A DNA stretch of 64,000 nucleotides. Source: an uncultured Microthrixaceae bacterium. Its GTDB lineage: Bacteria > Actinomycetota > Acidimicrobiia > Acidimicrobiales > Acidimicrobilacustridaceae. Each line of letters opens with the position of its first letter. Position 1 is the first letter of the stretch. The stretch is from the NCBI GenBank assembly GCA_963788835.1, contig CAWBIF010000004.1:476581-540580 (forward strand), written 5' to 3'. The translations under genes were made by a program, and so were the position numbers. Shown here in pieces: positions 11,291 to 44,607 of this stretch. Under the pieces are notes generated by a model. It searched no databases. It was not told the origin of the DNA and saw nothing but the letters and a program-made list of their open reading frames with translations.

Positions 11291-12803
11291 CTACATGTTC
11301 GCCCTACACAGCCTGTCGTCGGTGGGGAGGACAGGCCGTCGCCGGACTCTATGACACTCTCCGTGACGAGCGCAACTGGAAGAGCGACGTTGGGTGGTCA
11401 GGTGGGCGTCGCCGCGGACCCCGCGCAGGCGTCGCGCCACCGCCACGATCACCATCGCCGCCGGGATCGGGATGAGCACGTTGATGGGCACGTGGAAGCG
11501 CGGATCGCCGAAGAAGGGCCACACCGAGATGACCACGGCGACGATCGACAGCAGCAGGAGCAGACGACGCCGGTCACCCCCGCGGACCAGCAGCGGGACC
11601 CCGAGGACGCGCGAGGACGAGGACCGTGTCGAAGTACTTGTCGGCGATGTTGCCGAGCGTCGTCGCGGTGTCGGCGGGGATGAAGGGATCGTCGCCGTAG
11701 GACTGCACCGCCGCGACGGCGTCGTGGTCGCCGGCGAACTCCCACCGCGTGCGGGCGACGCACCAGCTCGAGCTCTCGCACAGGGTGGTTGGCCGCCCAC
11801 TGCAGGGCCTGGTGGGTGAGGCGCGAGTTGCGGTCGGTCTCGAAGGCCGGGCGGCGTTCGATCTTGTTCTCCCCGAAGCAGCGCTTGGGGAAGGCGAAGT
11901 GTCCCTGGGCGCCCGGGTAGTTGCCGATGCACAGGTTGTCGCCGGTGGTGGTGCCGATGGGCAGGAAGGCGTGCATCACGACCTCGTTGCGGATCGTCCA
12001 GGGGACCATGAGGACGACCACGGCGCCCGCCACCACCGCGAACCGCTTCAGCGCCAGCGCCATGCCGCCGACCCGCCACATCGCGATCAGCACCATGGGC
12101 ACGATCAGCAGGGCGATGGGCCGGATCTGGATCGAGACGCCGAGCAGCAGGCCGAACGCGACCAACCGTCCCCACGAGGGATCGCGCGCGTTCCAGGGGT
12201 GCCAGCAGCCGACCAGCAGGGTCAGCAGGAGGAAGAAGTTGAACGTGGTCTCGGTGAGGATCGTCGCCGAGTGGAAGATCAGGCTGGGGAACAGCGCCAC
12301 GATGACCGCGGTCACGGCCCCCACCCAGGGGCCGACCAGCCGGCGACCGAGCACCCCGGCCAGGGCGATCGAGGCGGTGCTGAAGATCAGGTTCAGGGCG
12401 CCGGTGGCCGCGATCCAGTGGTTGGGGAACGGCGAGTGCTGCATGAACCAGAACCAGGCGCTCAGGATGACCGGGTACCCGATCGGGTAGTAGGCGGTCG
12501 GCTCGCCGTCCTTCAGGCGGTAGAAGCCGTCGCCGGTGACCGCTCGGCGCGAGTAGTAGAGGTAGAAGAACGGGTCGTGCAGCTTCAGCGGCGGCCGCAG
12601 CGGCGTAGACGATCCACCAGCACCGCAGCGCCGCACCCCACGAGCACCGCCAGCAGCAGGATGCGGCGGGGCCAGCTGCCCCAGAGGACCTCGGCCAGGC
12701 GCGCCGGTCTCGTGGGGTGGACCACGGGGGCCGTCTCGGTGGTCGTCACCGCGCCGTGGCCGGAGCCGGGTCCGGGGCCTCCGGTCGGGCCGGACAGGAT
12801 CAC
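11291..12803 (-). CDS. GT39/ArnT-PMT_2-like polytopic glycosyltransferase, several frame breaks, 3' end uncertain
   Basis: Pieces lie in three minus-strand frames. (1) MILSGPTGG...WPRRILLLAVLVGCGAAVLV from GTG 12803. (2) ...PLKLHDPFFYLYYSRRAVTGDGFYRLKDGEPTAYYPIGYPVILSAWFWF...IRPIALLIVPMVLIAMW...NLCIGNYPGAQGHFAFPKRCF in ORF 11449..12636. (3) ...LLLLLSIVAVVISVWPFFGDPRFHVPINVLIPIPAAMVIVAVARRL in ORF 11291..12175. Confidence 0.6.
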
Positions 12804-14160
12804 TCAGCCCTTCGGGACGAAGCCGCCGTCGCCCCGCACGGATCAGGCCGTCGACGGCGACCGCGGCCAGCAGGCAGAGCGCGCCCTCGGCGCTGGCCCG
12901 GAACCGGGTGGCCGCGTAGAAGAGCGCGCACGGTGGCGATCACGGTCAGCGATCGGGGCGAGCAGCGGGAAGACGGCCTCCCGCCGCCGGCGCAGCACGA
13001 CGCCTCCGGCGATCGCCAGCAGCGCCATCGGGTAGTAGGTGTAGAGCCCCCAGGTCGACACCCAGACCGTGGTGTTCTCGAGGTACACGTCGAGGTGGGC
13101 CTCCTGGCGAGGCCGGAACAGGCCGGTGATGCGGCCCACCCGGGCCGCGATGACGATCGGGATGCGGCTCTCGTGCGCCTTCATGTAGGTGAGCGCCCCG
13201 TGGAACTGGTCACGGTCGGCCGCGCCGTTGAAGGCGTACGGGCCGATGTCGTGCTGGTCGAGGATGGCCTGCCCGCAGGGGTAGTACCAGTACCCGATGA
13301 GGGGTCCCGTAGTACACCTGGTCGCAGTTCGACGTGGCCAGGGTGCCCCCGATGTTCTCGCGACAGCAGCACGGTGTGGTCGAAGCGGGCCAGGTTGAAC
13401 CCGATCCACGGGGCCAGGACCAGCACGGTCGCGCCCAGGCCGACGGCCAGGCGCCGGGCGCGGCGCCGGCCGGCGGCGCGGGGGTCAGCAGGGCCAGCGG
13501 GACGACGAGCATCAGCGGCCAGCAGGACCAGCTCGGAGCGCGAGAGCGCGGCGAAGCCGACCGCCGCACCCACCGCGGCCATCCGCCAGCGCGACGGTCG
13601 GTGCCAGTACCGGTAGGCCAGCCAGACGGCGATCAGCACGACGAGGATGACCATCGACTCGGACAGCAGCATGCCGTCGTAGCGCCACGCGTTCGGGTAG
13701 ACGGCCACGAGCAGGGCAGCCGAGGAGCCCGACCCGCTCGCCGGCGATCTCGCGCCCGGCCAGGCCGGCCACGACGACCGACGCCGCCCCGAGCAGGGTC
13801 GAGGCCAGCAGGTGCTCGGTGATGGTGCGGACGCCCGACCGCCGAGAACGCGGCCAGGTAGACGAGGTAGAGCGGCGGGTGGTCGGCCGCCTGCACCGAC
13901 TCGGTGGCGCGCGAAGGCGTAGGGGTTGATGAAGCCGTGGCCGGTGGCCAGCAGGTTGGCGCCCTGGTGGAAGTAGAGGGGGTCGCCGCCGTAGACGGTG
14001 TGCCGGCGGATGAACCAGACGTAGGCCACCCGGATGGCCAGGCCCCCGACCGCCACGGCCACGAGCAGGATCCGGAAGTGGCGACGTGAGAACGACCGCG
14101 GCCGTCGAGGTCCGCGGGTTCGGCGGGAGCGGCTTCGGCGACCGACCCCGGCTCAGCCAC
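12804..14160 (-). CDS. Second GT39/ArnT-like polytopic glycosyltransferase, many frame breaks, 3' end uncertain
   Basis: The GTG at 14160 overlaps the stop of the upstream acyltransferase (GTGGCTGA). Pieces: AVAVGGLAIRVAYVWFIRRHTVYGGDPLYFHQGANLLATGHGFINPYAF, ADHPPLYLVYLAAFSAVG, LLVAVYPNAWRYDGMLLSESMVILVVLIAVWLAYRYW, LVLAPWIGFNLARFDHTVLLS, GPLIGYWYYPCGQAILDQHDIGPYAFNG...HESRIPIVIAARVGRITGLFRP, spread over ORFs 12843..13409, 13181..14062, 13210..13569 and 13633..14160. Confidence 0.55.
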
Positions 14161-16202
14161 GCGAGTCGACGGGCAGCGGTGGCTGGCCGTTGGCGATGTC
14201 GATCAACGACTCGCCCAGCCAGGGGGCGAGCGCCAGTGCGGCGGGCTTGGTCCAGTGGATGCCGTCGGGCCGGTCGGCCGGGCTCATCTCGCCCTCGGGC
14301 AGCGTCCGCATGTGCGCCTGCGAGGTCGAGGATCATGGCCCGCGGCTTGGTGGCCACCACCTCTCGCACCAGCTGGTTGAACCGGTCCATCCGACTCGGA
14401 TCCTCCTCGGGGAACGGCCCCTTGAGCTGCTCGGTGATGCCGACGCGGATGTAGGGCTGCATCAGCCAGACCACCGTCGCCCCCTGTGCCGTCATCGTGT
14501 CGATCGCCTCGGAGATCTCGCCGCGGAGCCACTTGTCGTACACCGGATCGCCGATCGAGCGCCAGCGGTGTCGCCGGGGATCAGCCGGTCGGCGACGTCC
14601 CAGGTGCCGAACATCACCATGATCACCTGCGGGCGGATCTGCGTGATCTGCTTGGGGAAGATCGGTGGTCCAGTCGCAGTAGCCGTAGTCGGCGATGACC
14701 TGGCCGAGGTACTGGTACTCGCCGCCGCGCCCGACCGGGCACCCCAGCTTGCCGGCGTCCCACACCTGCATCCGGCCGGTGTCGGGTCCCCAGTGCACGA
14801 GCCCGTCGCCCAGCGTGAGCAGGGCCGAGTCGCCGAGCAGCAGCACCCGCGGCGCTTCGCCCGGGGCCAGCGGCACCTTCGGGACCATCGGCGCGGTGGC
14901 CACCCCGCCGACCGACACCGGGACGGGCCGGGTCGTGGTGGTCGGCGCCAGCGACGGCGGCGGCGCGGCGTGGGCTGGGCGAAGCTGATGAGGTCGGTCT
15001 GCGGCACGGCCGTCACGGCGAGACAGCGAGATCACGACGGCCGCGATCGCAGCCGCGCTGAGCATCGACGGGCGGACGCGGACCGGGAACCGTGCGCTGG
15101 CGGATGGGCACCTCGAGCAGACGGGCCGAGGCGATGGCCAGCGACCAGGGTCACGGCGAAGCGCAGCCCGAACAGCGGCCAGGGGTCGAGCCCGGTGCGC
15201 CGCGGGGTCAGCCACAGGTAGATGGGCCAGTGGAAGAGGTACACGCCGTAGCTGATGGCGCCGAGCCAGCGCAGCGGCGCGAATGGCGAGCGCCGATCGG
15301 ATGGGTCCGCGGCGGATGGCGGCCACGATGAACAGGCAGGACATGACGGCGTAGCCGGCCAGCCCGCCCTGGTAGAGCCAGAGGAGCGGCTGGGTGGTGC
15401 TCGACCCAGAGCACCAGGATCACGACCGGCGGCGACGAAGCCGGCGATCTCCCAGGCCCAGCGGGGCATCCGCAGCACGAACCCGGTGGGGTGGGCCAGC
15501 AGCCAGCGCCAGCAGCGCGCCGAGCAGCAGCTCGAGCGCTCGCGTGCCGGTGCCGTAGTAGACGCGGGACACGTCCTGGCCGGGCGAGTACAGGACCAGA
15601 ACATCGACGCCAGCGAGGCCAGCGAGCAGCAGGGCCAGCACGACGGCGACGGCGCGGCGCGAGCCCTTGAACACCTTGAAGGTCACGACCACGATCACCG
15701 GGAAGACCAGGTAGAACTGCTCCTCGATCGCGAGCGACCAGAAGTGCAGCACCGGCGACGGCGCCGCTGAAGAGCTGGGCGTAGGACTGGCCCGTCGCGA
15801 TGAAGCGCCAGTTGGCGACGTAGGCCAGCGCGGCCAGCACGTCGCCCCGCAGCGTGGCGAGCTGCCCGGGCGAGGCGACGAAGTACCCGAACAGCGACGA
15901 CGCCGAGCAGGCAGAGCAGCGACGCCGGCATCAGCCGGCGGTAGCGGCGACTCCAGAAGCCCCGGAGGCTGATCGAGCCCGCCGCTCGAGAACTCCCAGA
16001 TCAGCAGCAGGGTGATGAGGAAGCCCGAGAGGGTGAAGAAGGTCGAGACGCCGAGGAAGCCGCCCCGCGCCCACGTGAACCCGTTGTGGTAGAGCAGGAC
16101 GGCCAGCAGGGCCAGGCCCCGCAGCCCCTCGACGCCCGGCAGGAACGGGATCGTCGGGCGCTTCTCGTGCAGGCTGTCGATCACGGGGGTCGACCGGGCC
16201 AT
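14153..16202 (-). CDS. OafA-like O-acyltransferase (acyltransferase-3 membrane domain plus C-terminal SGNH/GDSL domain), many frame breaks
   Basis: ATG at 16202. N-terminus [64 protein letters not shown]. Later pieces [18 protein letters not shown] and [22 protein letters not shown] part [18 protein letters not shown]..., [10 protein letters not shown], ...[11 protein letters not shown]. The stop is read as ...PLPVDSRG* at 14155-14153. Confidence 0.7.
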
Positions 16203-17416: not shown

Positions 17417-19913
<2,497 letters not shown>

Positions 19914-19953
19914 GGACCGGCTCCAGGGCTGTGAACGGACGAAACGACTCAGG

Positions 19954-20257: not shown

Positions 20258-21529
20258 GTGCCGGCCCCCACCCCCACCCTCACCCTGGCCGACGTCGACC
20301 GCTTCGTCGCCGCCCACGTGTTCGGCCCCTCGGCCGATCCCGACGGACTCGGCGTCGAGCTCGAGTGGCTGACCAGCCAGGGCCGCCGTGACCGCCGCCT
20401 CCCCGTCACCGAGGCCACCCGCCTCATCGACCGACTCTCGCCGCTCCCCGCCGGCAGCCTGCTCACCCTCGAGCCCGGCGGCCAGCTCGAGTTGAGCAGC
20501 GCTCCGTTCCGATCGATCGACGAGGTCTGCGCGGCGGCGACCTCCGATCTGGCCCTGCTCGACGCCGCGTGCGACGCCAGCCAGGTCGAGCTGATCGCGC
20601 TCGGCGCCGATCCGCTCCGTCCGCCCGAGCGCGTCGCCGTGGCGTCGCGGTACCAGGCGATGGAGCACTACTTCGACCAGCTCGGATCGGCCGGGCGCAC
20701 GATGATGTGCAACACCGCCGCCATCCAGGTGAACGTCGGCCTGGGCGAGCCCGACCAGGTGGCTGCGCGCTGGCGCCTGGCCAACCAGCTCGGGCCCACG
20801 CTGATCGCCTGCTTCGCCAACTCGCCGTTCGCCGGCGGGCTGCCGAGCGGATGGCAGTCGAGTCGTCTGCGCGCCTGGTGGGCGCTCGACCCGACCCGCT
20901 CGGCTCCGGTGCCGCTGCGACGTCGATCCGTCGTCGGCCTGGGCGCACTACGCGCTCGACGCCCGCGTCATGCTCATCCGTCTCGACGACGACCTGTGCC
21001 TCCCGATGAGCGAGCCCTTGAGCTTCGGCGACTGGCTCGCGCGACGGCCACGAGCTCGGGTGGCCGACCGAGGACGACCTGCGGTACCACCTCACGACGC
21101 TGTTCCCGCCGGTGCGCCCGAAGGGGTGGCTCGAGCTGCGCATGTTCGACGCGCTGCCCTCGCCCATGTGGCAGGTGGCGGTGGCCGTCACGTGCGCGGC
21201 GCTGACCGACGTCGCGCTCGGCGCCCGCGCTCGGCGAGGCGGTGGCGCCGACCGCCGACCTGTGGGTCGACGCCGCCCAGCTCGGCCTGGCCCACCCCGA
21301 CCTGGCCCGATCGGGCGTCGCCCTGTTCGACCTCGCGTTGGCCGCCCTGCGGCGCGCCCGTGTCGATCCCGACCGCATCGACCTCGTCGAGTGCTACGCC
21401 GATCGTTGGGTGCGCCGAGGGCGTTCCCCGGCCGACGACCGACTCGACGACTGGCGCCACAACGGCGACCTGTTCCCGCCCGCCGAGAGCGCGCGGTCCA
21501 CGCTGGCCACCAGCGAGCGGTCGGCGTGA
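20258..21529 (+). CDS. egtA: Glutamate-cysteine ligase family 2 protein EgtA, frame breaks in the middle third
   Basis: GTG at 20258. ...GVELEWLT...LTLEPGGQLELSS...YQAMEHYFDQLGSAGRTMMCNTAAIQVNVG..., then MLIRLDDDLCLPMSEPLSFGDWLA (ORF 20970), ...YHLTTLFPPVRPKGWLELRMFDALP (ORF 21112), and C-terminus in ORF 21242..21529. The stop overlaps the egtB start (GTGA). Confidence 0.8.
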
Positions 21530-22932
21530 CCGCGGTCGACACAACATCGACGTTCGACACCGCGGCGGTGGCCGCGGCGCTCGACCGCGCCCGCCGCCGC
21601 ACGCTCGGCCTGGTCGACAGCCTCAGCGAGGCCGAGCAGCGAGCCCAGGTGTCGCCCTTGATGTCGCCGTTCGTGTGGGACCTGGCCCACATCGGCAACT
21701 ACGAGGAGCTGTGGCTGCTGCGCGCCCTCGACGGCCGGGCGGCCATCGACCCGGCGCTCGACGACCTCTACAACGCGTTCGAGCACCCCCGCTGGGAGCG
21801 TCCCTCGCTCCCGATCCTCGGACCCGCGGAGACCCGTTCGTACCTCTCGACGGTGCGCGGCGCGCGTGCTCGACCTGCTCGCAGGGCTCGACCCGACCGA
21901 CCTCGGCGACGAGGCCGCCCGCCTGGTGGCCGACGGGTTCGTCTACGGCATGGTCCTGCAGCACGAGCACCAGCACGACGAGACCATCCTCGCCACCCAC
22001 CAGCTGCGCGGCTTCGACGCCACCCCGCCGCCCCGCTTGGCCCTCCCGACCGACGCCGCGGTCCACGACGCCGTCGACGCCACGGCCTCCGCGCCGACAT
22101 CCCCGCGCCGGGCGGCCCCTCCCATGCAGACGATCGACGGGGGACCCTTCGTCATGGGCACCTCGACCGAACCGTGGGCCTACGACAACGAGCGCCGCGC
22201 CCACGTCGTCGACCTGCCTCCCTTCCTGATCGACACGACTCCCGTCACCAACGAGGCCTACCTCGCGTTCATCGACGACGGCGGCTACGACGACGAGCGC
22301 CTGTGGCAGCCGGCCGGCTGGGCCTGGCGCACAGAGCAGGGCCTTGTCGCAGCCGCAGTTCTGGCTGCGCCGAGGGCGAGGGCGGGTGCAGCGTGCTGCG
22401 CTTCGGCCGTCAGCTCGACCTCGCGGCGCACCTCGACGAGCCGGTCCAGCACGTGTGCTGGTACGAGGCCGATGCGTTCGCCCGGTGGGCCGGCAAGCGG
22501 CTGCCGACCGAGGCCGAGTGGGAGAAGGCAGCGGTGGGTCGCCCCGACGCTCCCGACCCCGACGTCGACCGCGAGCCGTCTCGCTGGCCGTGGGGCGACG
22601 CGGCGCCCACCTCGGCGCGGGCCAACCTCGGCCAGATCAGCGACGGTCCCGCGCCGGTCACCGCCCGGCCCGACGGCGCCAGCCCGTGGGGTTGCCTGGC
22701 CATGATCGGCGACGTCTGGGAGTGGACGTCGTCGGACTTCATGCCCTATCCCGGCTTCGAGGCCTGGCCCTACCGCGAGTACTCCGAGGTCTTCTGGGGC
22801 CCCGAGTACAAGGTCCTGCGCGGCGGGTCGTGGGCCACCGATCCGGTCGCCGTGCGCGCGACGTTCCGCAACTGGGACTACCCGATCCGCCGCCAGATCT
22901 TCGCCGGCTTCCGCTGCGCCCGCGACGCCTGA
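21526..22932 (+). CDS. egtB: Hercynine oxygenase / sulfoxide synthase EgtB (DinB_2 plus FGE-sulfatase domains), frame breaks
   Basis: VTAVDTTSTFD...SPLMSPFVWDLAHIGNYEELWLL, VYGMVLQHEHQHDETIL, GGPFVMGT...AYDNERRAHVVDLPPFLIDTTPVTN, VCWYEADAFARWAGKRLPTEAEWEKAA, GDVWEWTSSDF..VLRGGSWAT. Spread over ORFs 21112..22932 and 21866..22705. Confidence 0.85.
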   Translation: MTAVDTTSTFDTAAVAAALDRARRRTLGLVDSLSEAEQRAQVSPLMSPFVWDLAHIGNYEELWLLRALDGRAAIDPALDDLYNAFEHPRWERPSLPILGPAETRSYLSTVRGARARPARRARPDRPRRRGRPPGGRRVRLRHGPAARAPARRDHPRHPPAARLRRHPAAPLGPPDRRRGPRRRRRHGLRADIPAPGGPSHADDRRGTLRHGHLDRTVGLRQRAPRPRRRPASLPDRHDSRHQRGLPRVHRRRRLRRRAPVAAGRLGLAHRAGPCRSRSSGCAEGEGGCSVLRFGRQLDLAAHLDEPVQHVCWYEADAFARWAGKRLPTEAEWEKAAVGRPDAPDPDVDREPSRWPWGDAAPTSARANLGQISDGPAPVTARPDGASPWGCLAMIGDVWEWTSSDFMPYPGFEAWPYREYSEVFWGPEYKVLRGGSWATDPVAVRATFRNWDYPIRRQIFAGFRCARDA

Positions 22933-22935
22933 GCC

Positions 22936-23712
22936 ATGTGCCGCCTGCTCGCCTACGTGGGTCCTCCGTCGCGGCCTCGACCGTCGTCACCGATCCGCCC
23001 TTCTCGCTGCTCGCCCAGTGCACCGCGGCGCGGCAGCAGACGAGCGGCTGCGAGAATCCCGACGGTTGGGGGATCGGCTGGTACGAGGGCGGACAGGCGA
23101 CGCCCCACCGCTATCGCACCACCACACCGCTCGACGCGGACGACGCCGGCCGGGCCGACCTGGCCGACATCGTCTCGGGACACTTCGTCGCCCACATCCG
23201 CCACAAGTCGCCGGGGTCGCCCACCGAGGTCGCCGGCAACGCACCCTTCGTCGATGGCCCCTGGATGTTCGCCCACAACGGCTTCGTCGAGGGATACCGC
23301 GATGGCCGCCGCGAGCAGTTGCACGCGCAGCTCAGCCCGTCACGCCGGTCGGCGTTGACCGGCGACGCCGACAGCGAGGTGATCTTCGCCCTCGTGCTCG
23401 ATCGCCTCGACGCCGGCGCATCCCCCCTCGACGCCGTGCGCGAGGTGGTCACCGGGCTCGGCGAAGGCCGGTACAACATCGTGCTCACCGACGGCGCGCA
23501 GCTGGTGGCGTGCCGTTGGGACAACTCGCTGGTCGTGCGCCGCGACCACCCGGTGGCCGGTGGGCTGGTCGATCGCCTCCGAGCCCTACGACGACGATCC
23601 GGGCTGGCAGGTCGTTCCGGATCGCTCGTTCGTGGGTATGGACGATGCCGGCCTGACGATCACCCCACCCGGTTCCCCCTTCGATGCCACCACTGCGGAG
23701 GCGCTCCCATGA
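22936..23712 (+). CDS. egtC: Class-II glutamine amidotransferase-type amidohydrolase EgtC, frame breaks
   Basis: ATG 22936 gives MCRLLAYVG (catalytic Cys2). It continues in another frame as ...[32 protein letters not shown]...[10 protein letters not shown]...[20 protein letters not shown]...DSEVIFAL. The end ...TAEALP* overlaps the egtD ATG (ATGA at 23709-23712). Confidence 0.8.
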
Positions 23713-24703
23713 CCGAACCCCACGAGTCCTCCCGAGTGCGCGTCGACGTGCTGATGGGCCCGACCGATCTCGACGACGCGCTGCGCGCCGACGTGCGACA
23801 CGGGCCTCACGTCGACGCCGAAGGAGCTGCCGCCCAAGTGGTTCTACGACGACCGCGGCTGCGAGCTGTTCGACGCAGATCACCCGCCTCCCCGAGTACT
23901 ACCCGACCGAGCGCGAGCGGGCGATCCTGCGCGCCGAGGCGGCCTCGATCGCCGAGGTGTCCCGGGCCGACACGCTGGTCGAGCTCGGCTCGGGCACGTC
24001 CGACAAGACACGGGTCCTGCTCGACGCGCTCGCCGCGGGCGGGCGCCTCGAGCGCTTCGTGCCCTTCGAGATCAGCGAGACCACGCTGCGCGCCGCGGCC
24101 GCGGCCATCGCGGAGGAGTACCCCGGCATCGACGTCCACGCCGTGGTCGGCGACTTCGAGCGCCACCTCGGCGACCTCCCCTCGGGCGGCACGCGCCTCA
24201 TCGCCTTCCTCGGCGGCACCATCGGCAACTTCGCGCCCGCCGAGCGCAAGCGCTTCCTGGCCGACCTGGCCGACACCATGAGGCCGGGCGACCACTTCCT
24301 GCTCGGCACCGACCTGGTCAAGGACGTCGACCGGCTCGAGGCCGCCTACGACGACGCGCAGGGCGTGACCGCCGAGTTCAACCTCAACGTGCTGCACGTG
24401 GTCAACCGCGAGCTCGACGCCGACTTCGACGTCGACGCGCTTCGCCCACGTGGCCCGCTTCGACCGTGACGAGGAGTGGATCGAGATGCGGCTGCGTGTC
24501 GCTGGCCGACCAGAAGGTCGACGATCGGCGCCCTGCACCTCGACGTCGAGTTCGCCGAGGGCGAGGAGATGCGCACCGAGATCAGCGCCAAGTTCCGTCG
24601 ACCCGGCATCGAGGCCGAGCTGGCCGGCGCCGGCCTGCGCCTCGAGCGCTGGATGACCGACCCCGACGGGGACTTCGCCCTCAGCCTGTCGGTGCGCGAG
24701 TAG
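23709..24703 (+). CDS. egtD: Histidine N-alpha-methyltransferase EgtD, frame breaks
   Basis: [14 protein letters not shown]..., then [51 protein letters not shown]...[19 protein letters not shown]...[10 protein letters not shown]...[24 protein letters not shown] (ORF 23684..24469) and ...[20 protein letters not shown]...[14 protein letters not shown] (ORF 24476..24703). Confidence 0.85.
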
Positions 24704-24714
24704 CACTCGCCCAC

Positions 24715-24731
24715 CGAGGGGCGACCCCTCG
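24715..24731. terminator. GC-rich hairpin between convergent egtD and the SRPBCC gene
   Basis: CGAGGGG-cga-CCCCTCG: a 7-bp perfect stem and 3-nt loop, 12 nt after the egtD stop and about 20 nt after the stop of the opposing gene. Confidence 0.5.
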
Positions 24732-24752
24732 CCTACATGCGTCGATCTCCGC

Positions 24753-25217
24753 CTATCCCTCGGGCCGCTGCTCGACCTCGGCCTTGATGCGCTCGAGGGT
24801 GGTGCGCATGCCGTTGCGGTTGGTCTTGCCGCGCGCCCATCCGAGCAACGCCCAGTAGAGGCGCAGCCCCAGGGTCGGCTTCAGCGCGAACGACTCGGTG
24901 ACGTCGGTACCGTCGCCCGACGGCTCGAGCCGGTAGCTCCAGACGTTGAGCGGCGTCGCGCCGTTGCCCACCCCGAAGGCGAACTCGCGGCCGGGCTCGC
25001 TGGCCGTCACCGTGCAGGTCGTCCAGTAGATCGGGCCCTTGCCGTTGCGCTTGACGTGGCCGCGGAACTGGGCCCCGACCGCGGGTCCGGTGGCGGGTTC
25101 GACCCATACCGCCTCGAAGGTCTCGGGGCTGTAGCGGCCGATCTTGGTGACGTCGCTCACCAGATCCCACACCTGGTCGGGGGGTGCGTCCATGTGAACC
25201 GTCACCGAGTCGTGCAT
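24753..25217 (-). CDS. SRPBCC-superfamily (polyketide cyclase/dehydrase-like) protein
   Basis: Intact 154-aa ORF: MHDSVTVHMDAPPDQVWDLVSDVTKIGRYSPE...; length and N-terminal pattern are typical of the family. Confidence 0.75.
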   Translation of the reverse strand: MHDSVTVHMDAPPDQVWDLVSDVTKIGRYSPETFEAVWVEPATGPAVGAQFRGHVKRNGKGPIYWTTCTVTASEPGREFAFGVGNGATPLNVWSYRLEPSGDGTDVTESFALKPTLGLRLYWALLGWARGKTNRNGMRTTLERIKAEVEQRPEG

Positions 25218-25249
25218 GCGGTCACCCTATGGCTGATCGGGTCGCCCGC

Positions 25250-29377: not shown

Positions 29378-29405
29378 TCGGCGGGCTCCCCCTCCCGAAC
29401 CCCTC

Positions 29406-30821: not shown

Positions 30822-30928
30822 CGGCGGATGATACCGGCGGGCCGCCGACGGCCTCGGGGGCTCGGCGCCGGTCGGGCGCGGGCGTGCGCCCGACCGTCCG
30901 GGGACCGCGACCGGATCGGCGGACCCGG

Positions 30929-32078: not shown

Positions 32079-32134
32079 CGGCCTGCTCTCCTGTTCCTCG
32101 TTCTCCGCGTGTGGCCGTGGCCGCCGGACCGGGC

Positions 32135-32756
32135 CTAGCCCTTGACCTTGACCATGGCCGGACGCAGCACGCGTCCCTTCCAGAGGTAGCCGGTGCGCAG
32201 GCTCTCGGTGACGACGCTCTCGCCGCCCTCACCGGGCTCGTGGAGCACCGCCTCGTGCAGCAGCGGGTCGAAGGCCTCGCCCTCGACCACCATGGGCTCG
32301 AGGCCCTGCTTCGGCCAGCGTCTCGAGCAGCATCTTCGAGATCGGGCCCACATCGGTGGCCTCGTGGACGACAGCGGCATCGCATGCGTCGAGCACCGGC
32401 AGCAGCGACACCACCAGGGCCTCGGAGGCCCGCTCGCGGGTCTCGTGCTCGGCCTTGGCCGTGCGCTTGCGGAAGTTGTCGAACTCGGCCTTGACCCGCT
32501 GCAGGGCCTCGCGGTACTCGTCGCGCTCGGCCTGGGCCGCCCGCGTCGGGTCGTCGTCGACGACGATGATCTCGCCGGGATCGCCGGTGTCGCCCGACGA
32601 GAGGTCGGAATCGGGATCGTCGTCGCCGCGCATCACCTCGTCGAGCGACGGCGAGCGCGTCGTCGATGGACCTCGAACCGGGCGCGCCGGGCTCGTGCGC
32701 CCGGCCCGCCGGTCGCGACGGGACCGTCCTGTCTGATCGTCGGTCGGGTCAGCCAT
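32135..32756 (-). CDS. grpE: Nucleotide exchange factor GrpE, one frame break at ~32312
   Basis: ATG at 32756. ...YREALQRVKAEFDNFRKRTAKAEHE...LLPVLDACD... (ORF 32229..32756) joins ...KQGLEPMVVEGEAFDPLLHEAVLHEP...GYLWKGRVLRPAMVKVKG* (ORF 32135..32380). 622 nt (1 mod 3). Confidence 0.85.
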
Positions 32757-32758
32757 GC

Positions 32759-34616
<1,858 letters not shown>

Positions 34617-34676
34617 GATGTTTCTCCTGGGAGTGCGGGTGGATAGGGTGGAGGTCGAAAGCTTGCGTTGCGCTCC

Positions 34677-34705
34677 ACGATAAAAGTTGAGTCGCTGATT
34701 ATCAA
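34677..34705 (-). promoter_or_regulatory. Candidate dnaK promoter (TTGATA-17 nt-TATCGT) with a HAIR-like operator in the spacer
   Basis: Minus-strand reading: TTGATA(34705-34700) ATCAGCGACTCAACTTT TATCGT(34682-34677), about 60 nt upstream of the dnaK ATG. ACTCAAC matches 6 of 7 positions of the HAIR half-site ACTCAAG. Confidence 0.45.
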
Positions 34706-34800
34706 CTCGGGGGCCCGGATTGTGGCAGATTCCGGGGACGGGCGCTCCGATTCCGCGCCAGTCCTGCCTGCCGGGGCGCTTTCTGGCTAGGGTCCGAGCC

Positions 34801-35598
34801 GTGAGCCACTCGCTGATCCTGCTGCGCCACGGCCAGAGCACCTGGAACCTGCTGAACCTCTTCACGGGCTGGTACGACGCCGATCTCACCGACCAGGGCG
34901 AGGCCGAGGCGCCGGCCGCCGGGCCAGGCGCTGGCCGAGGCCGGGGTGCGCGCCCGACGTCCTGCACACCTCGCGTGCAGGTCCGGGCCATCCGCACCGC
35001 CGACCTGGCCCTCGACGAGATGGGCCGGCTCTGGCTGCCGGTCCGGCGGCAGCTGGCGGCTGAACGAGCGCCACTACGGCGCCCTGCAGGGCAAGGACAA
35101 GAAGCAGACCACCGACGAGTTCGGCGCCGAGCAGGTGAAGATCTGGCGCCGCAGCTACGACATCGCCCCGCCGCCGCTCGACGCCGACGACGAGCGACAC
35201 CCCCGCTTCGATCCCCGCTACGCCGACCTGGCCCCCGACCTGCTGCCGGCCACCGAGTGCCTCGCGGACGTCGTCGCCCGCATGCTGCCGTACTGGTACG
35301 ACGACATCGTCCCCGACCTGGCCGCCGGCCACACCGTGCTCGTGGTCGCCCACGGCAACAGCCTGCGGGCGCTGGTCAAGCACCTCGACGGCATCTCCGA
35401 CGACGACATCGCCGAGCTCAACCTGCCCACCGGCGTGCCCGATCCGCTACGAGCTGGGCGCCGACTTCGCGCCCGCTCGAGGCGCTGCCGATCGACGAGC
35501 GCTACCTGGGCGACGTCGAGGCGGCCCGCGCCGCGGCCGAGGCGGTGGCCCAGCAGGCGACCGGCGGTCAGGCCTCGCGGACCGTCTCGCCCGGGTAG
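34801..35598 (+). CDS. gpmA: 2,3-bisphosphoglycerate-dependent phosphoglycerate mutase GpmA, frame breaks
   Basis: GTG at 34801. [37 protein letters not shown] (RHGxS/TxWN), ...[19 protein letters not shown]...VKIWRRSYD...[24 protein letters not shown] (ORF 34946), end ...[18 protein letters not shown]... (ORF 34720..35598). Confidence 0.8.
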
Positions 35599-36699: not shown

Positions 36700-36783
36700 C
36701 GCCGCGCCCGCGCCGGCCGGCGTGGGTCGGGCCCCGGTCCATTGCAGTCCGGGCCTCGCGCCGCGAGTACGTTCGGCGTCCGT

Positions 36784-39005
36784 ATGGGATCCAAGTTCGG
36801 CACCGCCCGCAAGATCATCCTCGGCATCGGCATCGCGTTCGCCATCGTCACGGTGGCCTCGGGGATCAGCGGCTGGATCTTCTCGTCGTCCCAGGTCGAC
36901 CACTCGACCAAGACCCGCGAGGTCTTCGTCGGCATCCCGGGCTCGCTGATCGTCGTCTTCTACATCGTCGTGCCGATCCTGCTCGTCTACGGGGCGGTGC
37001 TCTTCGCGCAGCGCACCAAGAACTGGGAGCGGGGCCGCCCCGACAACCGGGCCACCACCTCGGCCAGAACGTCAAGCGGCGCCTCGCGCGACTTCCGCGC
37101 CGGCGTCTACATGCAGACGCTGCTGCGCGATCCCGCCGCCGGCATCATGCACTCGCTCATCTACTTCAGCTTCCTCGTGCTGCTCGGCGGTCACCACGGT
37201 GCTCGAGATCAACCACCAGCTGCCGACCAGCCTCAAGTTCCTGCACGGCAGCGTGTACGAGGGCTACTCGTTCGTCGGCGACCTGGCCGGGCTCGACCTT
37301 CCTCATCGGCGTGGTGTGGGCCCTCGTGCGCCGCTACATCCAGCGGCCCTACCGCATCCGCATCAAGACCAAGCCCGAGCACGCGGTGATCCTGCTCACG
37401 TTCCTGAGCTTCGGCGTGACCGGCTTCCTCACCGAGGCCTACCGCATCGCCATGGTCGGGCGACCCACCTTCGAGAAGTGGTCGTTCGTCGGCTGCCCGC
37501 TGTCCGACCTGGTCAAGAACACGCTCGCACCTGGTCGGCTGGCACGAGTTCTGGTGGATGGTGCACGTCGTGACGTTCTTCGTCTTCCTGGCCATCCTGC
37601 CGACCACGATGCTGCGCCACATGTTCACGTCGCCGCTCAACATGTACCTGCGCGACCGCGACCGCCCCAAGGGCGCCATGAAGCCGATGCCCAACCTGAT
37701 GGAGACCGAGCTCGAGAGCTTCGGCGCCTCCACCATCGAGGACTTCACCTGGAAGCAGCTGCTCGACACCGACGCCTGCACCATGTGCGGCCGCTGCACG
37801 TCGCGTGTGCCCGGCGCACGCCACCGGCAAGCCGCTCGACCCGCGCGAGATCGTGCTCAAGACGGGCGAGGTCATGGCCCGCACCGGCGACCCGGCCGTG
37901 TCGCCGCCCATCGGGGTCGACGCCGAGCATCGTCATGACCGCCGACTCGGTGTTCGAGCGCATCACCGCCGAAGAGGTCTGGGCGTGCACGTCGTGCAAG
38001 GCCTGCGACGAGATCTGCCCGGTCAACATCGAGATCCTCGACAAGATCCTCGACATGCGGCGCTACCTGTCGCTGATGGAGTCGAACTTCCCGACCGAGC
38101 TGGGCAACGCCTACCGCGGCATGGAGAACTCGGGCAACCCGTGGGGCATGAGCCAGGCCGACCGGGCCGACTGGGCCGACAAGCTCGAGGGCATCGAGAT
38201 CGTCGACGGCACCAGCCCGCTCGAGGCCGAGTACCTCTACTGGGTCGGGTGCGCCGGCTCGTTCGACGACAAGAACAAGAAGGTCACCCAGGCCATGTCG
38301 AAGCTGATGCAGCGGGCCGGCATCTCCTTCGCCATCCTCGGCCCGGCCGAGATGTGCACCGGCGACCCGGCCCGCCGCTCGGGCAACGAGTACATCTTCC
38401 AGATGCTGGCCATGCAGAACATCGAGACGCTCGACGGCATGGGCGTGAAGAAGATCGTCACGCAGTGCCCGCACTGCTTCAACACGCTGCAGCAACGAGT
38501 ACCCGCAGCTCGGCGGCCACTACGAGGTCGTGCACCACAGCCAGTTCCTCGAGCAGCTCATCGAGACGGGCAAGCTCGACCTGACCGACGCCCGCCTCGA
38601 CGAGCGCATCGTGTACCACGACTCCTGCTACCTCGGCCGCCACAACGACGTGTACCTCGCGCCCCGCAAGGTGATCGGATCGCTGGCCGGCGTCGAGATC
38701 GTCGAGGCCGAGCGCAACGGCACCAAGGGCATGTGCTGCGGCGCCGGCGGCGCCCGCATGTGGATGGAGGAGTCGATCGGCAAGCAGGTCAACGTCGAGC
38801 GCAGCCAGGAGCTGATCGCCACCGGGCGCCAGCCGGATCGCCACCGCCTGCCCGTTCTGCTACATCATGATCGACGACGGGGTGAAGAGCCAGGGCTGGA
38901 GGAGGACGAGATCTGAAGGTGGCCGACATCTCCATGCACCTCCTCGAGGCCATCGAGCAGGGCGAGCAGAAGAGCGAGCTCATTGCTGAGACGGTCCAAG
39001 ACTGA
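36784..39005 (+). CDS. Membrane-anchored Fe-S / CCG-domain oxidoreductase (HdrD/GlpC-like, mycobacterial Rv0338c-type), frame breaks
   Basis: ATG at 36784. N-terminal TM helices (IILGIGIAFAIVTVASGISGW, SLIVVFYIVVPILLVYGAVLF, IMHSLIYFSFLVLLG...). Two ferredoxin-type motifs (CTMCGRCTS.CP, CTSCKACDEICP). Two CCG modules (YWVGCAGSFD...IVTQCPHCFNTL; VYHDSCYLGRHN...GMCCGAGG...ACPFCYIMIDD). Reconstructed end ...VADISMHLLEAIEQGEQKSELIAETVQD* at 39003-39005. Confidence 0.8.
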
Positions 39006-39488: not shown

Positions 39489-40062
39489 TCAGGCCTTGTC
39501 GGTGAAGTTCTCCCAGTAGCGGCTCGGGCGGGGCCCGCGCTGGCCCTGGTACTTGGACCCGACCTCGGCCGACCCGTAGGGCACGTCGGCGGGCGTGGTC
39601 ATGCGGATGAACGAGATCTGGCCGATCTTCATGCCCGGGTAGAGCGTGATGGGCAGGTTGGCCACGTTGGACAGCTCGAGGGTGAGCTGGCCGTCCCAGC
39701 CGGCGTCGACGAACCCGGCGGTCGAGTGGATGAGCAGTCCGAGTCGGCCGAGGCTGGACTTGCCCTCCAGCCGGGCGACGAGGTCGGTCGGCAGGGCGAC
39801 GCGCTCGAGGGTCGAGCCGAGCACGAACTCGCCGGGATGGAGGATGAACGCGTCCTCCTCGGCGATCTCGACCAGCTCGGTGAGCTCCTCGAGGTTCTGC
39901 TTCACGTCGATGTAGCCGAGCGTGTGGTTGCGGAACACACGGAAGTAGCGATCGATGTGCAGGTCGACCGACGACGGTTGGATGCAGGTGAGGTCGAGCG
40001 GGATCGATCACGATGCGCCCGGCGTCGAGCTCCTCGCGGATGGTGCGATCGGACAGGATCAT
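39489..40062 (-). CDS. dcd: dCTP deaminase, one frame break at ~40000
   Basis: ATG at 40062. [21 protein letters not shown] / [33 protein letters not shown]...[17 protein letters not shown]...[35 protein letters not shown]...ISFIRM.... 574 nt (1 mod 3). Confidence 0.9.
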
Positions 40063-40141
40063 CGGCGGGACGTTAGTGCAGGCCCGGTCGGGGCCCGTCC
40101 TACGATGACGCCGACGCCAGCGGCGCAGGGGGACACGCGAG

Positions 40142-41366
40142 ATGGACGGCGAGCAGGCGATCTGGAACCCGGCGGCCATCGACGTGGGGCTCGACGCCCG
40201 GGCGGCCACCTTCGAGAACCCGACGGGCGACCGGGGCGCCGGCGGCGTCGGCCCACGGGGGCCGCAAGGGCGCCCCCAGCCGGCGGATCCGGTCCGGCGA
40301 GCGGGTCGTGCTGGCCGACCTCGCCGGACCGGGCGTGATCCGCCACCTGTGGATGACCTTCCCGCCCGCCCGACCCGAGCAGATGCGGGGCCTGGTGCTC
40401 GAGGTGTTCTACGACGACCGCGACGAGCCGAGCGTGTCGGTGCCGTGCCTCGACTTCTTCGGTCTGCCCCACGGGCGCCCGGTGGCGTACCACTCGGCCC
40501 TGACCGCGGTGAACGAGGGGCGCGGGTTCAACAGCTACGTCCCGATGCCGTTCCGTCGGCGGGTGCGCGTCGAGGTGGTCAACGGCTCGCCCCGGACCAC
40601 GACGCTCTACTACCAGGTCGACTACACGCTGCAGGCCGAGCTCGATCCCGCGCTCGGCCACCTGCACGTCGCGTTCCGGCGCGAGAACCCGACCGTGGCG
40701 CGCCGTGACGTCGTGATCACCGAGGGCCTGCGGGGACCGGGTCGGTTCCTCGGCTGCGTGATCGGCGTGCGGGTGCTCGACGAGGGCGCGTGGTACGGCG
40801 AGGGCGAGGTGAAGGTGTACCGCGACGGCGACGACGAGCTCCCGACCATCTGCGGCACCGGGCTCGAGGACTACGTCGGCAGCGCGTGGGGGATGGGCCC
40901 GCACGCGACGCCCTACGGCGGCGCCCCGCTGGTCGTCGGCCGCGGCGACGTGACGAGCCCGCTCGGCGGCTCCCCCGACTTCGTCGGCTTCTACCGGTGG
41001 CACCTGCCCGACCCGATCATGTTCACGACCGACCTGCGCGTCACGATCCAGCAGATCGGCGCCGCCTTCTTCGGCGCCGGCCAGGAGGCCGAGCTGGCCG
41101 CCTACGAGCAGAGCCACCCCGTGGCCGGAGAAGGATGGATGCGCGACCTCGGACCCGGGCTGTTGGCCTGGGGAATCGTCGAGCGGGTGGACGACTACTG
41201 CGCCACCTCGTTCGTCTACTGCGCAGAGCCCCAGTCGGTCGCACGGGTCGATCTGGACGTGGCTCTGGCCGACATCGCCCGCCGCGACTACGAGCTGGCG
41301 TCGCCCTTCGAGCTGCTGGGCGGCGTCGCCCCGCCCGACCAGGCGGCGGTCCCGCCGCGGTCGTAG
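40142..41366 (+). CDS. DUF2961-family protein (GH172-like), one frame break at ~40248
   Basis: ATG at 40142. ...ATFENPTGDRGAGG / AHGGRKGAPSRRIRSGERVVLADLAGPGVIRHLWMTF...FFGLPHG...NSYVPMPF...LYYQVDY...WYGEGEVKVYRDGDDELPTICGTGLEDY.... 1225 nt (1 mod 3). Confidence 0.75.
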
Positions 41367-41397: not shown

Positions 41398-42223
41398 ATG
41401 GCGACCCAGACGAGCGTGGACTTCATGGATCCGGCCAACAAGGACTTCGTGTTGGCGACGTTGCAGGCCGAGATCGACCAGACCTTCGATCTGGTCGCGG
41501 ACCCGGCCCGCTGGGAGGCGCCGACCGCGTGTGAGGGCTGGGAGGTGCGCGACATCATCGGGCACCTCACCGATGCGACCGAGGGCTACTTCCCGGGCTT
41601 CGACATCGCCCGCAACGGCGGGACGCCTGACCACCGCTCGGCCTGGCCGGCATGGCGGTGCGGGCCGACGAGCACGCCCGGGCCTTCCGCAGCCTCTCGC
41701 GCGACGAGATGCTCGCTCGCCTCAAGGTCGATTCGGAGCGGGCGATGGCCATCTTCACGTCGCTCTCGGACGACGACTGGACCGGGCTCATCGTCTCGCA
41801 TCCGTACATGGGTCCGCTGCCCGCGATGTTCTACCCGATGTTCCAGCTGGTCGACTACACGGTGCACACGTGGGACATCCGCGAGGGCATCGGCCAGCCC
41901 CACGCGCTGTCGGGCGACGCCACCGATCTGCTGGTGCCGATCATCTTCATCCTCTGGCAGGCCACCGCCGACACCTCCTCGCGTGACCACGCCGTACACG
42001 GTGGGCGTGCACACGAGCGGCCGCAACGGCGGCGACATGCGCGTCGACGTGTCGAGCGAGGGCATGCAGTACGCGCCGGGCCCGATCGACGACTGCGCGC
42101 GCCATCCTCGAGCTCGACCCGGCCACCTTGGTGCTGACCGGCTACGGGCGGGTCAACGGCGGCACGGTCCGCGGCAACCGGCAGATGGCCAGCGACTTCA
42201 GGTCCCTGTTCTTCGCGATCTGA
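41398..42223 (+). CDS. Maleylpyruvate-isomerase-family mycothiol-dependent enzyme-like protein (DinB/TIGR03083-type), frame breaks
   Basis: MATQTSVDFMD...ARWEAPTACEGWEVRDIIGHLTDATEGY..., ...DDWTGLIVSHPYMGPLPAMFYPMFQLVDYTVHTWDIREGIGQ... (ORF 41652), end read as ...RQMASDFRSLFFAI*. Confidence 0.6.
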
Positions 42224-42233
42224 GAGGTCGGGC

Positions 42234-43798
42234 TTGGAGCGGACGATCCCCCGGCTGTTGCGGGCCGCGGTCGACGACGTCCCTGACCAGGTCTGGCTGC
42301 TGACCGACGACGCCGAGCACACCTACGCCGGCGCGCTCGACCAGATCGAGCGCGCCGCCGCCGCCCTGCGGTTCGCCGGCGTCAGGCGTGGGCGATCGCG
42401 TGCTCGTGACCGCCCGCAACACCGATCGCTACCTGCTGAGCTGGTTCGCCCTGATGGAGGTGGGCGCCGTCGCAGGTGCCGCTCAACCCGCAGAGCACCG
42501 AGGCCGAGCTGCCGGGGCTTCGTCGAGCAGGTGGCGCCGGCGGCCATCCTCACCGACGGCGCACTGGCTGGCGACGGTCGACGCCGCCGCGGGTCACCGC
42601 GGATTCGACGCGCCGCGGCGGACCGGACATCGGTCGCCTCGACGTGGACGAGATCTTCACCGCCGAGCCCGACGGCCACGGACCGGCCGACGTCGATCCG
42701 AGCGACGTGGCGGTGATGATCCCGACCTCGGGCACGACGGGTCGCTCGAAGCTCGTGATGCAGACGCACCTCGCCTACGTGATGGCGGGCGAGGGGTTCC
42801 CCTACTGGATGCAGCTCGACGCGACCGATCGGCTGATCACGTCGTTGCCGCTCTTCCACATCAACGCGCCCGCCTACTCGACGCTCGGATCGATCGCCGC
42901 CCGGGCCAGCCTGGCGCTGCTGCCGGGGTTCTCGGCCAGCGGGTTCCTCGACGCGGCCCGGCGGTTCGGCGCCACCGAGTTCAACTCCATCGGCGCCATG
43001 CTCGAGATCCTCATGCGCCAGCCGCGCCGGGACGACGACGCCGACAACCCGCTGCGCCGCTGCTACACGGGACCCACGCCCGAGCGCGACCGCCAGCTCG
43101 AGATCGAGGAGCGGTTCGGGATCGAGATCGTGTGCGGCTACGGGCTGTCCGAGTCGCCCTACGCGCTGATGTGGCGCCGCGGCGAGCGGCCCTACGGCAC
43201 GCTCGGGTCGGTCCGCCAGCACCCCGAGCTGGGCGAGGTCAACGAGGCGCGGGTGGTGGACGGCGGCGGCGTCGAGGTCGGGGACGGCGAGATCGGCGAG
43301 CTCGAGCTGCGCAACCCGGCCATCATGCGCGGCTACTACGAGATGCCCGACGAGACCGCCGCGGTCGTGCACGACGGATGGTTGCGCACCGGCGATCTCG
43401 TCAGCGACAACGGCGACGGGACCTACACGTTCGTCGGGCCGGGTCAAGGAGGTCATCCGGCGGCGGGGCGAGAACCTGTCGCCGGCCGAGGTCGAGGCCG
43501 CGCTCGAACGGCACCCCGACGTGGCCGAGGCCGCGGTCGATCGGCCGTTCCGTCCGAGCTGTCCGAGGACGACGTCAAGGCGTTCGTGCTGGCCGCGCCC
43601 GGACGCACGGTCGACCCGGCCGCGCTGCGGAGCTTCGCCGCCGAGCAGCTGGCCGCCTTCAAGGTGCCGCGCTACATCGAGGTGGTCGACGAGCTGCCGC
43701 ACGGACCCGACGGGCCGGCTGACCAAGCACCAGCTCCCCCTCGAGCGCACGCCGACGCAGAGGTGGACTTCGAGGCCGCGTCCGGTCAGGCTCGGTAG
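42234..43798 (+). CDS. AMP-dependent acyl-CoA synthetase/ligase, frame breaks
   Basis: TTG at 42234. ...VAVMIPTSGTTGRSKLVMQTH (AMP motif I), ...GYGLSESP..., ...WLRTGDLVSDNGDGTYTFVG / R.KEVIRRRGENLSPAEVEAAL...FKVPRYIEVVDELP.... Main piece is ORF 42476..43798. Confidence 0.8.
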
Positions 43799-44607
43799 AT
43801 GGACGGCGACGACGTGGCTGCACACCTGGATCGGCTCGTCCGACCCCGAGCACATCTCGGTGGCGGGCCGCGACCTGCCGGGCGAGGTCATGGGGAAGCT
43901 CACGCTCACCGAGCTGTCCTACCTGCTCGTCACCCGGCGAGAGCCGACACCCGGCCAGCGCCGCCTGGTCGACGCCGTGCTGGTGTCGCTGGCCGACCAC
44001 GGGCTCACGCCCGAGCGCGCTCGCCGACCCGACTGACCTACACGGGCGCGCCCGAGTCGATCCAGGGCGCGGTGGCCGCCGGTCTGCTGGGGGCGGGCAG
44101 CGTCTTCCTCGGCCCGACCGGTGACACCGCCCAGTTCCTCGCCGACGCGCTGGCGCTCGGCGGAGGCGCGGCCGAGCTCGACGACGACGAGCTGCGGGCC
44201 GATCGCCGCATCCGCGGTCGTGACGCGGCGCGCGGCCGGTCTGCGCGTGCCGGGGCTCGGCCACCCGGTGCACGGGACGGCGATCCGCGGACGCCGCGCC
44301 TCTACGAGCTGGCGGCCGCCGAAGGTCTGCTCGGTCCGCACCTGCGGCTGCTGGCGCTGGTCGCCGAGGCGCAGGCCGAGGCCAGCGGGCAACACCTGAC
44401 CGGTCAACGGCGCCGGGCGCCGGCGGGGCGGCGCTGCTCGACGCCGGCGTGCCGGTGTCAGCCGTCCGGGGCATGGCGTTGATCGCCCGGACGGCGGGAC
44501 TCGTCGCGCACCTGGTCGAGGAGGCCGAATCGCCGATCGGCATGCCGCTGTGGCTCGAAGTCGAACGCCGGGCGAACGAGGCCGAGCCACCCGGCGAGGG
44601 TGGCTGA
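43799..44607 (+). CDS. Citrate-synthase-superfamily citryl-CoA-lyase-like protein, frame breaks
   Basis: ATG at 43799 (frame break within the first ~15 nt). ...WIGSSDPEHISVAGRDLPGEVMGKLTLTELSYLLVTRREPTPGQRRLVDAVLVSLADHGLTP / ...LTYTGAPESIQGAVAAGLLGAGSVFLGPTGD... / ...VPGLGHPVH...DPRTPRLYELA... End read as ...MPLWLEVERRANEAEPPGEGG* (44605-44607). Confidence 0.6.

Follow-up and report, generated by a model that had tools for sequence, protein, structure and literature searches.

The dense reading-frame breaks at positions 11,291–44,607 of the window, the 64,000-nt stretch of DNA analyzed here, are very probably errors in the deposited consensus and not mutations in the organism. We delimited this zone, without assigning it to a strand, by a GC3-phase HMM, tblastn and four-way DNA alignments, and treated positions 1–11,290 and 44,608–64,000 as its flanks. 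The coding frame was found to change every ~400 bp within ~11.6–44.4 kb, compared to every ~1.5 kb in both flanks. The HMM partitioned positions 11,625–44,408 into 80 phase segments (2.4 per kb), and placed only 8 segments in positions 1–11,624 (0.7 per kb) and 12 in positions 44,409–64,000 (0.6 per kb). Indels private to the window were counted in alignments with three same-genus genomes. The zone carries ~107 private indels of a length that is not a multiple of three in 24.5 kb of aligned sequence (4.4 per kb), of which 83 insert and 10 delete a single base, a ratio of ~8:1. The first and the last private indels of the zone are both insertions, at 11,609 and 44,418. The same count gave 3 private frame-changing indels in 5.9 kb aligned in the left flank and no private single-base indel in the 7.2 kb of the right flank alignable with relatives. 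The original prediction had confined the dense breaks to ~11.3–44.6 kb and proposed counting frame-restoring edits per kb in each region; within the window, these counts bear out the confinement. On the scale of the genome the zone is not set apart, being one of ~46 similar patches.

To locate the breaks in individual genes, the window was searched by tblastn with proteins from a clean same-genus genome, and the resulting frame pieces were counted. Pfam scans of the orthologues and of the window ORFs agreed with the gene identities assigned earlier from the sequence. A PMT_2-type glycosyltransferase gene (12,793–14,083, minus strand; Pfam of the orthologue) is in 3 pieces, and a gene for a large membrane protein (14,168–16,151, minus strand; orthologue of 696 amino acids) has many private single-base insertions. 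These are followed by clpB (17,432–19,928, minus strand; tblastn and alignment), which its six private indels split into 7 pieces. The ergothioneine synthesis genes egtA-egtB-egtC-egtD (20,273–24,691, plus strand; tblastn, alignment and Pfam of orthologues) gave 4 pieces for EgtA, 3 for EgtB and 2 for EgtC, and private insertions are present in EgtD. The egtC break, for which a 1-nt deletion or a 2-nt insertion had been suggested, coincides with a private 1-nt deletion at 22,965. A stretch that is non-syntenic to the relatives fetched (24,700–29,450, no strand assigned) switches phase every 150–1,000 bp and includes an SDR gene (25,227–26,204, minus strand). In the hspR-dnaJ-grpE-dnaK chaperone operon (29,475–34,826, minus strand; tblastn, alignment and Pfam), DnaK is in 3 pieces, GrpE and DnaJ are in 2 each, and HspR is recovered as one HSP. 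The histidine-phosphatase-type phosphoglycerate mutase gene gpmA (34,789–35,559, plus strand; tblastn and Pfam) is in 4 pieces, and the gene for a membrane Fe-S/CCG-domain oxidoreductase (36,721–39,002, plus strand; tblastn, alignment and Pfam) is in 9, with all 8 of its shifts being +1. The dCTP deaminase gene dcd (39,504–40,083, minus strand; tblastn and Pfam) consists of 2 pieces separated by one +1 break near 40,000, and the DUF2961 gene (40,077–41,366, plus strand; alignment and Pfam) has one private insertion at 40,247. The final block of the patch (41,420–44,565, plus strand), which includes an AMP-binding acyl-CoA ligase gene (42,455–43,798, plus strand; Pfam), contains 14 private single-base insertions, ending with the one at 44,418. 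Genes with a single break had been predicted to carry +1 insertions, and this was the case for the purC-region break at 1,112 and for dcd, grpE and the DUF2961 gene.

The left flank, not assigned to a strand, is clean: purB and purA are intact, with PurA and PurB each recovered as one full-length HSP, and the insertion at 1,112 is private to the window. The surface protein described earlier as having a single break is encoded on the minus strand from 6,742 to ~11,125; it contains DUF5979 repeats, its break lies near 10,010, and it is absent from the relatives fetched. The right flank, likewise clean and without strand assignment, contains tRNA-Gly(CCC) at 45,036–45,107, followed by an 11.6-kb lower-GC segment that is not at that place in the relatives fetched and, after it, by dinB and transporter genes. 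On either side, the patch borders on a segment that these relatives lack, at 6.7–11.3 kb and 45.1–56.7 kb. An integrase or mobile-element boundary at the right edge was considered and rejected, no integrase being found among the ORFs scanned.

The coding sequence beneath the breaks appears to be under normal constraint. In clpB, we identified six private single-base indels, 5 of them insertions and 1 a deletion, and none in four relatives. When read through these six indels, ClpB forms one stop-free open frame of 852 codons, which shares 93% identity, across 99% of its length, with intact ClpBs of 825–827 amino acids. At columns invariant in 60 homologues the read-through protein has no private residue, where single homologues have 0–5. 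Column-wise translation of the zone revealed 3 stops in 7,555 aligned codons, similar to the sister genomes, and an amino-acid identity to the clean relative G006 equal to or higher than that of the sister species G002. GC3 periodicity is fully kept across the frame breaks. Private substitutions at the first two codon positions initially seemed raised in the zone, suggesting an excess of substitution errors, but neither the invariant ClpB columns nor the column-wise translation shows any excess; the raised count probably came from local misalignment beside indels. The damage in the zone is of indels only, with stops and substitutions not elevated. A search of 5.8 billion proteins with the read-through ClpB found no independent sequence of the same species that would allow a base-by-base comparison, the best match being 93% identical.

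The genome from which the window was taken is an Acidimicrobiales metagenome-assembled genome (MAG) of 4.3 Mb and 71% GC in 4 contigs. Two-state segmentation of the whole genome assigned ~46% of it to ~46 dense patches (median length, 27.5 kb); the zone corresponds to the patch at 488–519 kb of its contig. Phase changes in clean 10-kb bins are balanced (215 of +1 versus 212 of −1), and those in dense bins show an excess of +1 (1098 versus 644). GC content was considered as a cause: dense bins are slightly richer in GC (0.72 versus 0.70; Spearman 0.46), but a higher GC3 in itself makes the phase detector more sensitive. Essential genes are broken both in the zone (dnaK, clpB) and elsewhere: the GyrA and SecA domains, which lie in other dense patches, are split into 7 and 4 frame pieces, respectively. 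RpoB, RpoC and AlaS, located in clean parts, are intact. We found no intact second copies in the genome, the only paralogues elsewhere being 66–79% identical. Haplotigs or duplicates were rejected as a cause, since comparison of the genome with itself shows no long duplicated segments. Repeat copies in the genome, considered as an internal measure of the error, differ by substitutions as well as indels and so gave no such measure. Marker completeness is 54% and contamination 0.09%; the genome encodes 57 tRNAs, which cover each of the 20 amino acids, as well as a complete 16S rRNA.

Further evidence was provided by the other assemblies of the genus. Same-genus genomes in 20 contigs or fewer have 54–86% completeness, and those in 60–690 contigs have 87–95%. 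The indels of the window are missing at the same sites in three or four relatives. In the same alignments, two few-contig sisters, G002 and G003, have their own private single-base insertions at other places (29 and 37, respectively), and G006 (110 contigs, 95% complete) carries none. The frame-break pattern follows assembly type, not phylogeny. Taken together, the private nature of the indels, the ~8:1 predominance of insertions, the lack of a stop or substitution excess, the breakage of essential single-copy genes, the extension to ~46% of the genome and the 54% completeness support the view, put forward in the original prediction, that the breaks are uncorrected indel errors.

The small number of contigs suggests that this assembly was built from long reads. 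The residual errors of nanopore MAGs are reported to be mainly indels, most severe where coverage is low, and correcting frameshifts is reported to increase CheckM completeness (PMC8103633, PMC9262707). The IDEEL test measures indels that fragment genes in long-read MAGs, and frameshift-aware tools such as proovframe, MEGAN-LR or Kastor can repair them (PMC9262707, PMC8103633, PMC12007338, PMC12818350). As in long-read (nanopore or PacBio CLR) MAGs, where the effect is reportedly stronger in low-coverage parts, single-base indels private to the assembly fragment otherwise conserved genes, and marker completeness is depressed despite high contiguity. In contrast to the classical nanopore error, which concerns homopolymer length and is often a deletion, insertions here predominate ~8:1 and homopolymers are avoided. 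Moreover, the quality here is not uniform along the contig but alternates in long blocks with sharp edges and a median length of 27.5 kb. Sharp borders between clean and dense sequence and patches of tens of kb resemble the unpolished or gap-filled long-read stretches of hybrid assemblies. However, ~0.4% indels with no detectable substitution errors is far below raw-read error, which argues that the patch went through some consensus step. In ~46 patches the consensus very probably kept spurious extra single bases, roughly one per 200–250 bp; each shifts the reading frame, with the consequence that gene callers and marker-gene counts see fragments. The underlying clpB, dnaK, dnaJ, grpE, egtABCD, gpmA, dcd and other genes are thus very probably intact in the cell. 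The sharp boundaries would fit the uneven polishing or chimeric consensus suggested in the original prediction. Candidate causes of the abrupt change in quality at ~11.5 and 44.5 kb are a locally reduced depth of usable reads, polishing that failed or a mixed-strain consensus.

The inserted bases themselves bear on the kind of error involved. The inserted base is unlike both of its neighbors in 52 of 64 cases (81%), compared to 58% of background positions; the remaining 12 lie in runs of 2–3 bases, and none lies in a longer run. This depletion in runs rules out homopolymer-length error, the classical nanopore signature. The missing signature weakens the case for the usual nanopore failure at homopolymers but leaves that for an artefact untouched. 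A sequence motif or methylation site as the cause was likewise rejected, no positional bias being detected from −5 to +5 around the 83 sites. The insertions fall on the three codon junction types 31, 20 and 13 times, and 80% abut a third codon position, versus 67% expected. Where the inserted base abuts and differs from a third-position base, it would provide a synonymous alternative in 56 of 65 cases, against a null of 44.3 ± 3.8 (P = 0.001).

The avoidance of homopolymers and the adjacency to synonymous sites give a hint of a strain-mixed consensus. This possible but doubtful variant of the artefact reading supposes that two or more close, co-occurring strains were merged in the patch, with both alleles of a SNP kept side by side. 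By the same tentative account, a substitution polymorphism would become a 1-nt insertion, and clean regions would be either specific to one strain, such as the flanking island and the surface-protein gene, or identical between strains. In addition to the properties of the inserted bases, the lack of a motif, the absence of substitution errors at conserved residues and the edging of the patch by segments absent from the relatives fetched, the right one beside tRNA-Gly, fit a merging of strains. Nevertheless, only 7 of the 65 implied allele pairs are transitions (11%), versus ~29% of real between-species differences in the genus, and variable sites may be favored when the aligner decides which of two neighboring bases to label 'inserted'. 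Furthermore, the core genes past the two islands (0.5–6.6 and 56.7–64 kb), which would be expected in a second strain too, are clean, and we know of no documented consensus caller that acts in this way.

Massive recent pseudogenization, in which the indels would be real products of reductive decay in large genomic blocks, is very unlikely. The frame breaks are certainly present in the deposited sequence, and genuine genome decay with many frameshift-interrupted genes occurs in Mycobacterium leprae and recent obligate symbionts. Real decay, however, is also accompanied by stop codons, by substitutions and deletions and by an erosion of codon bias; it leaves essential genes untouched and is common to close relatives. 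None of these further traits was seen here. The essential, single-copy genes gyrA, secA and dnaK are shattered with no second copy, constraint on the coding sequence is normal, and the original argument that such pseudogenization is implausible stands. Bacterial mutation is generally deletion-biased, contrary to the excess of insertions in the zone. The sharp boundaries with interleaved clean blocks, and the dependence on assembly type, also argue against decay.

It is still less probable that the extra bases are truly in the DNA of part of the population, for example in a polyploid or mixed population in which intact copies complement the frameshifted ones; if so, the patchwork would represent large blocks of recent insertion-biased mutagenesis and not sequencing error. 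Real insertions bypassed at expression by quadruplet decoding, programmed +1 frameshifting or RNA-level correction would explain why nearly all shifts are +1 and why skipping one base per site restores perfect proteins, but this is the least credible reading, because the 83 sites share no codon, slippery motif or context and occur at all three codon junctions, none of the 57 tRNAs identified by ARAGORN has an enlarged anticodon, and the insertions stop abruptly at the patch borders and are absent from rpoB, rpoC, alaS and the clean same-genus genome.

Read as a consensus artefact, the finding matters only for data hygiene and database quality. The genome seems to be used as the representative of its species, because the collection searched contains a single genome for each species. 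About half of its genes will be annotated wrongly, as fragments or pseudogenes, and the 54% completeness understates what is probably a near-complete genome. Until the assembly is re-polished, claims of pseudogenes, gene loss or domain fusion that draw on it should be discounted, the stop-free run-on ORFs in the zone being one example. The same discounting applies to G002 and G003, with their own private insertions, and probably also to G001, G004, G009 and G013, other genomes of the genus that combine few contigs with low completeness. Single-base insertions outside homopolymers, preferentially beside synonymous sites, may help to diagnose such patches.

The window is C4:476,581-540,580 of a genome (G000; 4.32 Mb in 4 contigs, 71% GC, no N) whose ClpB homologues place it in the Acidimicrobiales. 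Third codon positions are ~90% G+C in this genome, so base composition by itself reveals the coding phase. An HMM with three phase states divided the window into 100 phase segments, 8 of them in 1-11,624, 80 in 11,625-44,408 and 12 in 44,409-64,000, and the switch rate was 0.7 per kb in the left flank, 2.4 in the zone and 0.6 in the right flank. The window was also searched by tblastn with the proteins of the syntenic contig of G006, a clean, fragmented genome of the same genus whose own phase profile is normal. ClpB was recovered as 7 pieces that alternate between frames, the Fe-S/CCG oxidoreductase as 9, EgtA and GpmA as 4 each, DnaK and EgtB as 3 each, and DnaJ, GrpE, EgtC and Dcd as 2 each; PurA and PurB of the left flank gave one full-length HSP apiece. 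The original prediction of dense frame breaks in this zone was thus upheld by both methods, and its gene names by Pfam scans of the orthologues and the window ORFs. Taken together, the HMM segments, the tblastn pieces and the Pfam assignments establish that the frame breaks are a real observation, far beyond chance.

Across the whole genome, the phase HMM revealed that clean blocks, with 5-10 switches per 10 kb, alternate with dense ones, with 20-35, on each of the four contigs. Phase changes of +1 and -1 were balanced in clean bins (215 vs 212), which is the expectation for gene boundaries; dense bins had an excess of +1 (1098 vs 644). Two-state segmentation defined 46 dense patches covering 46% of the genome (median length 27.5 kb, range ~5 to 213 kb), and the zone corresponds to the patch at C4:488-519 kb. 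A GyrA domain in 7 frame pieces (C4:678.8-680.2 kb) and a SecA domain in 4 (C3:513.8-514.9 kb), both inside dense patches, together with intact RpoB, RpoC, AlaS and one DnaE, provide independent homology confirmation of this patchwork. The genome table gives a completeness of 54.06% and a contamination of 0.09%. Since G000 encodes a full 16S rRNA and 57 tRNAs that together serve all 20 amino acids, the 54% completeness is due to marker genes being broken rather than to DNA being absent. Separately, we observed that contig C3 opens with 4.1 kb (C3:1-4117) that are an inverted copy of C3:1,325,668-1,329,789, a segment ~8 kb from the far end of that contig. Identity between the copies is 97.3%, with 104 substitutions and 24 short indels separating them; the pair may be a true inverted repeat or may have arisen by fold-back during assembly.

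Alignments of the syntenic blocks with G006 and with the few-contig relatives G002 and G003 (72-87% DNA identity to the window) were used to count indel runs that occur in a single sequence. The 24.5 kb aligned in the zone contained ~107 window-private runs not a multiple of three, including 83 single-base insertions and 10 single-base deletions, an excess of insertions of ~8:1. The private insertions of the zone span 11,609 (first) to 44,418 (last). Only 3 window-private indels were found in 5.9 kb of the left flank, and 7.2 kb of the right flank contained no single-base indels and one 7-nt intergenic insert. Of the window's private indels, 5 insertions and 1 deletion fall in clpB, a gene in which four relatives have none. 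These alignments bear out the earlier inferences that genes with a single break carry one extra base and that egtC has a 1-nt deletion, which lies at 22,965.

Both flanks carry further features. On the left, a very large repetitive surface protein (6,742-11,125, minus strand), which combines a SpaA-type prealbumin fold with at least 10 repeats of DUF5979, is absent from three relatives at the same position; its gene has an unusual codon composition (GC1 0.53, GC2 0.61, GC3 0.92) and a single frame break near 10,010. On the right, ~11.6 kb of DNA with a lower GC content (0.65-0.69), not found at the same place in relatives, comes after tRNA-Gly(CCC) (45,036-45,107); tRNA gene and segment together occupy 45,036-56,750. 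The segment encodes an intact BTAD/AfsR-type regulator of 1,044 aa, a luciferase-like monooxygenase, an ABC-2 transporter pair and a Vgb-lyase/fn3/He_PIG protein, and looks like a genomic island; no integrase was detected in its scanned ORFs. Two plus-strand ORFs in the clean flank, at 59,274-61,472 (732 aa; MFS_1 and ABC ATPase) and 61,393-63,999 (>869 aa; two BPD_transp_2 permease domains and ABC ATPase), join domains usually found on separate proteins, and could be true fusions or adjacent genes merged through a lost stop.

The error pattern tracks assembly type, not phylogeny. Genomes of the genus in 20 or fewer contigs are 54-86% complete, and those in 60-690 contigs 87-95%. In the same alignments G002 has 29 private single-base insertions of its own, G003 has 37 and G006 has 0; those of G002 and G003 lie at other places than the window's, 7 from G002 falling in the window's clean right flank. 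Several few-contig genomes among G001, G003, G004, G009 and G013 have a completeness of 56-63%, and the private single-base insertions of G003 likewise occur in patches. The whole set probably shares one common sequencing/assembly pipeline and the same defect. In nanopore MAGs, indels are the chief residual error and are worse when coverage is low, and frameshift correction lifts CheckM completeness, which is exactly the situation seen here (PMC8103633; PMC9262707). In a soil study, megabase contigs required proovframe ahead of CheckM (PMC12818350).

Classical homopolymer error was rejected as the source of the inserted bases, 52/64 of which are unlike both neighbours, vs 58% of background positions. 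A search from -5 to +5 around the insertion sites yielded no motif. Insertions abut a third codon position in 80% of cases vs 67% expected, and where the inserted base abuts and differs from the third position it would give a synonymous alternative in 56/65 cases (null 44.3 +/- 3.8, P = 0.001). These properties hint at a mixed-strain consensus in which strain SNPs were turned into insertions, and the patch borders fit such an origin because the patch is flanked by two segments absent from the fetched relatives, the DUF5979 surface-protein gene (6.7-11.3 kb) and the lower-GC segment after the tRNA-Gly(CCC). However, transitions make up 11% of the implied changes vs 29% of the real differences between members of the genus, the aligner may be biased in picking the 'inserted' base, and the adjoining core genes are clean. 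We regard strain mixture as a possible but rather doubtful cause, and low local depth or failed polishing as at least as likely.

Real decay is expected to leave nonsense and missense changes as well as indels. Read through its six indels, ClpB forms a single stop-free frame of 852 codons; the product aligns over 99% of its length with intact ClpBs of 825-827 aa at 93% identity, and it has no private residue at columns invariant in 60 homologues (single homologues have 0-5). When 7,555 aligned codons of the zone were translated column by column, ignoring indels, they gave 3 stops, the sister genomes being alike, and an amino-acid identity to G006 at least equal to that of the sister species G002. 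Frame-shifting indels are therefore the only damage. Neither a second copy of the zone in the G000 genome nor, among ClpB homologues, an independent sequence from the same species was found. Real mass pseudogenisation is highly improbable, since essential genes are among those shattered, the other signs of decay are absent and assembly type is linked to the frame breaks. Still less likely is recoding or quadruplet decoding, given that the insertion sites have no shared context, G000 has no tRNA with an enlarged anticodon and the effect ends abruptly at the patch borders. With damage confined to indels and tied to assembly type, the evidence favours sequence error rather than decay, supporting the original prediction of uncorrected indel errors; the zone is not a biological feature.
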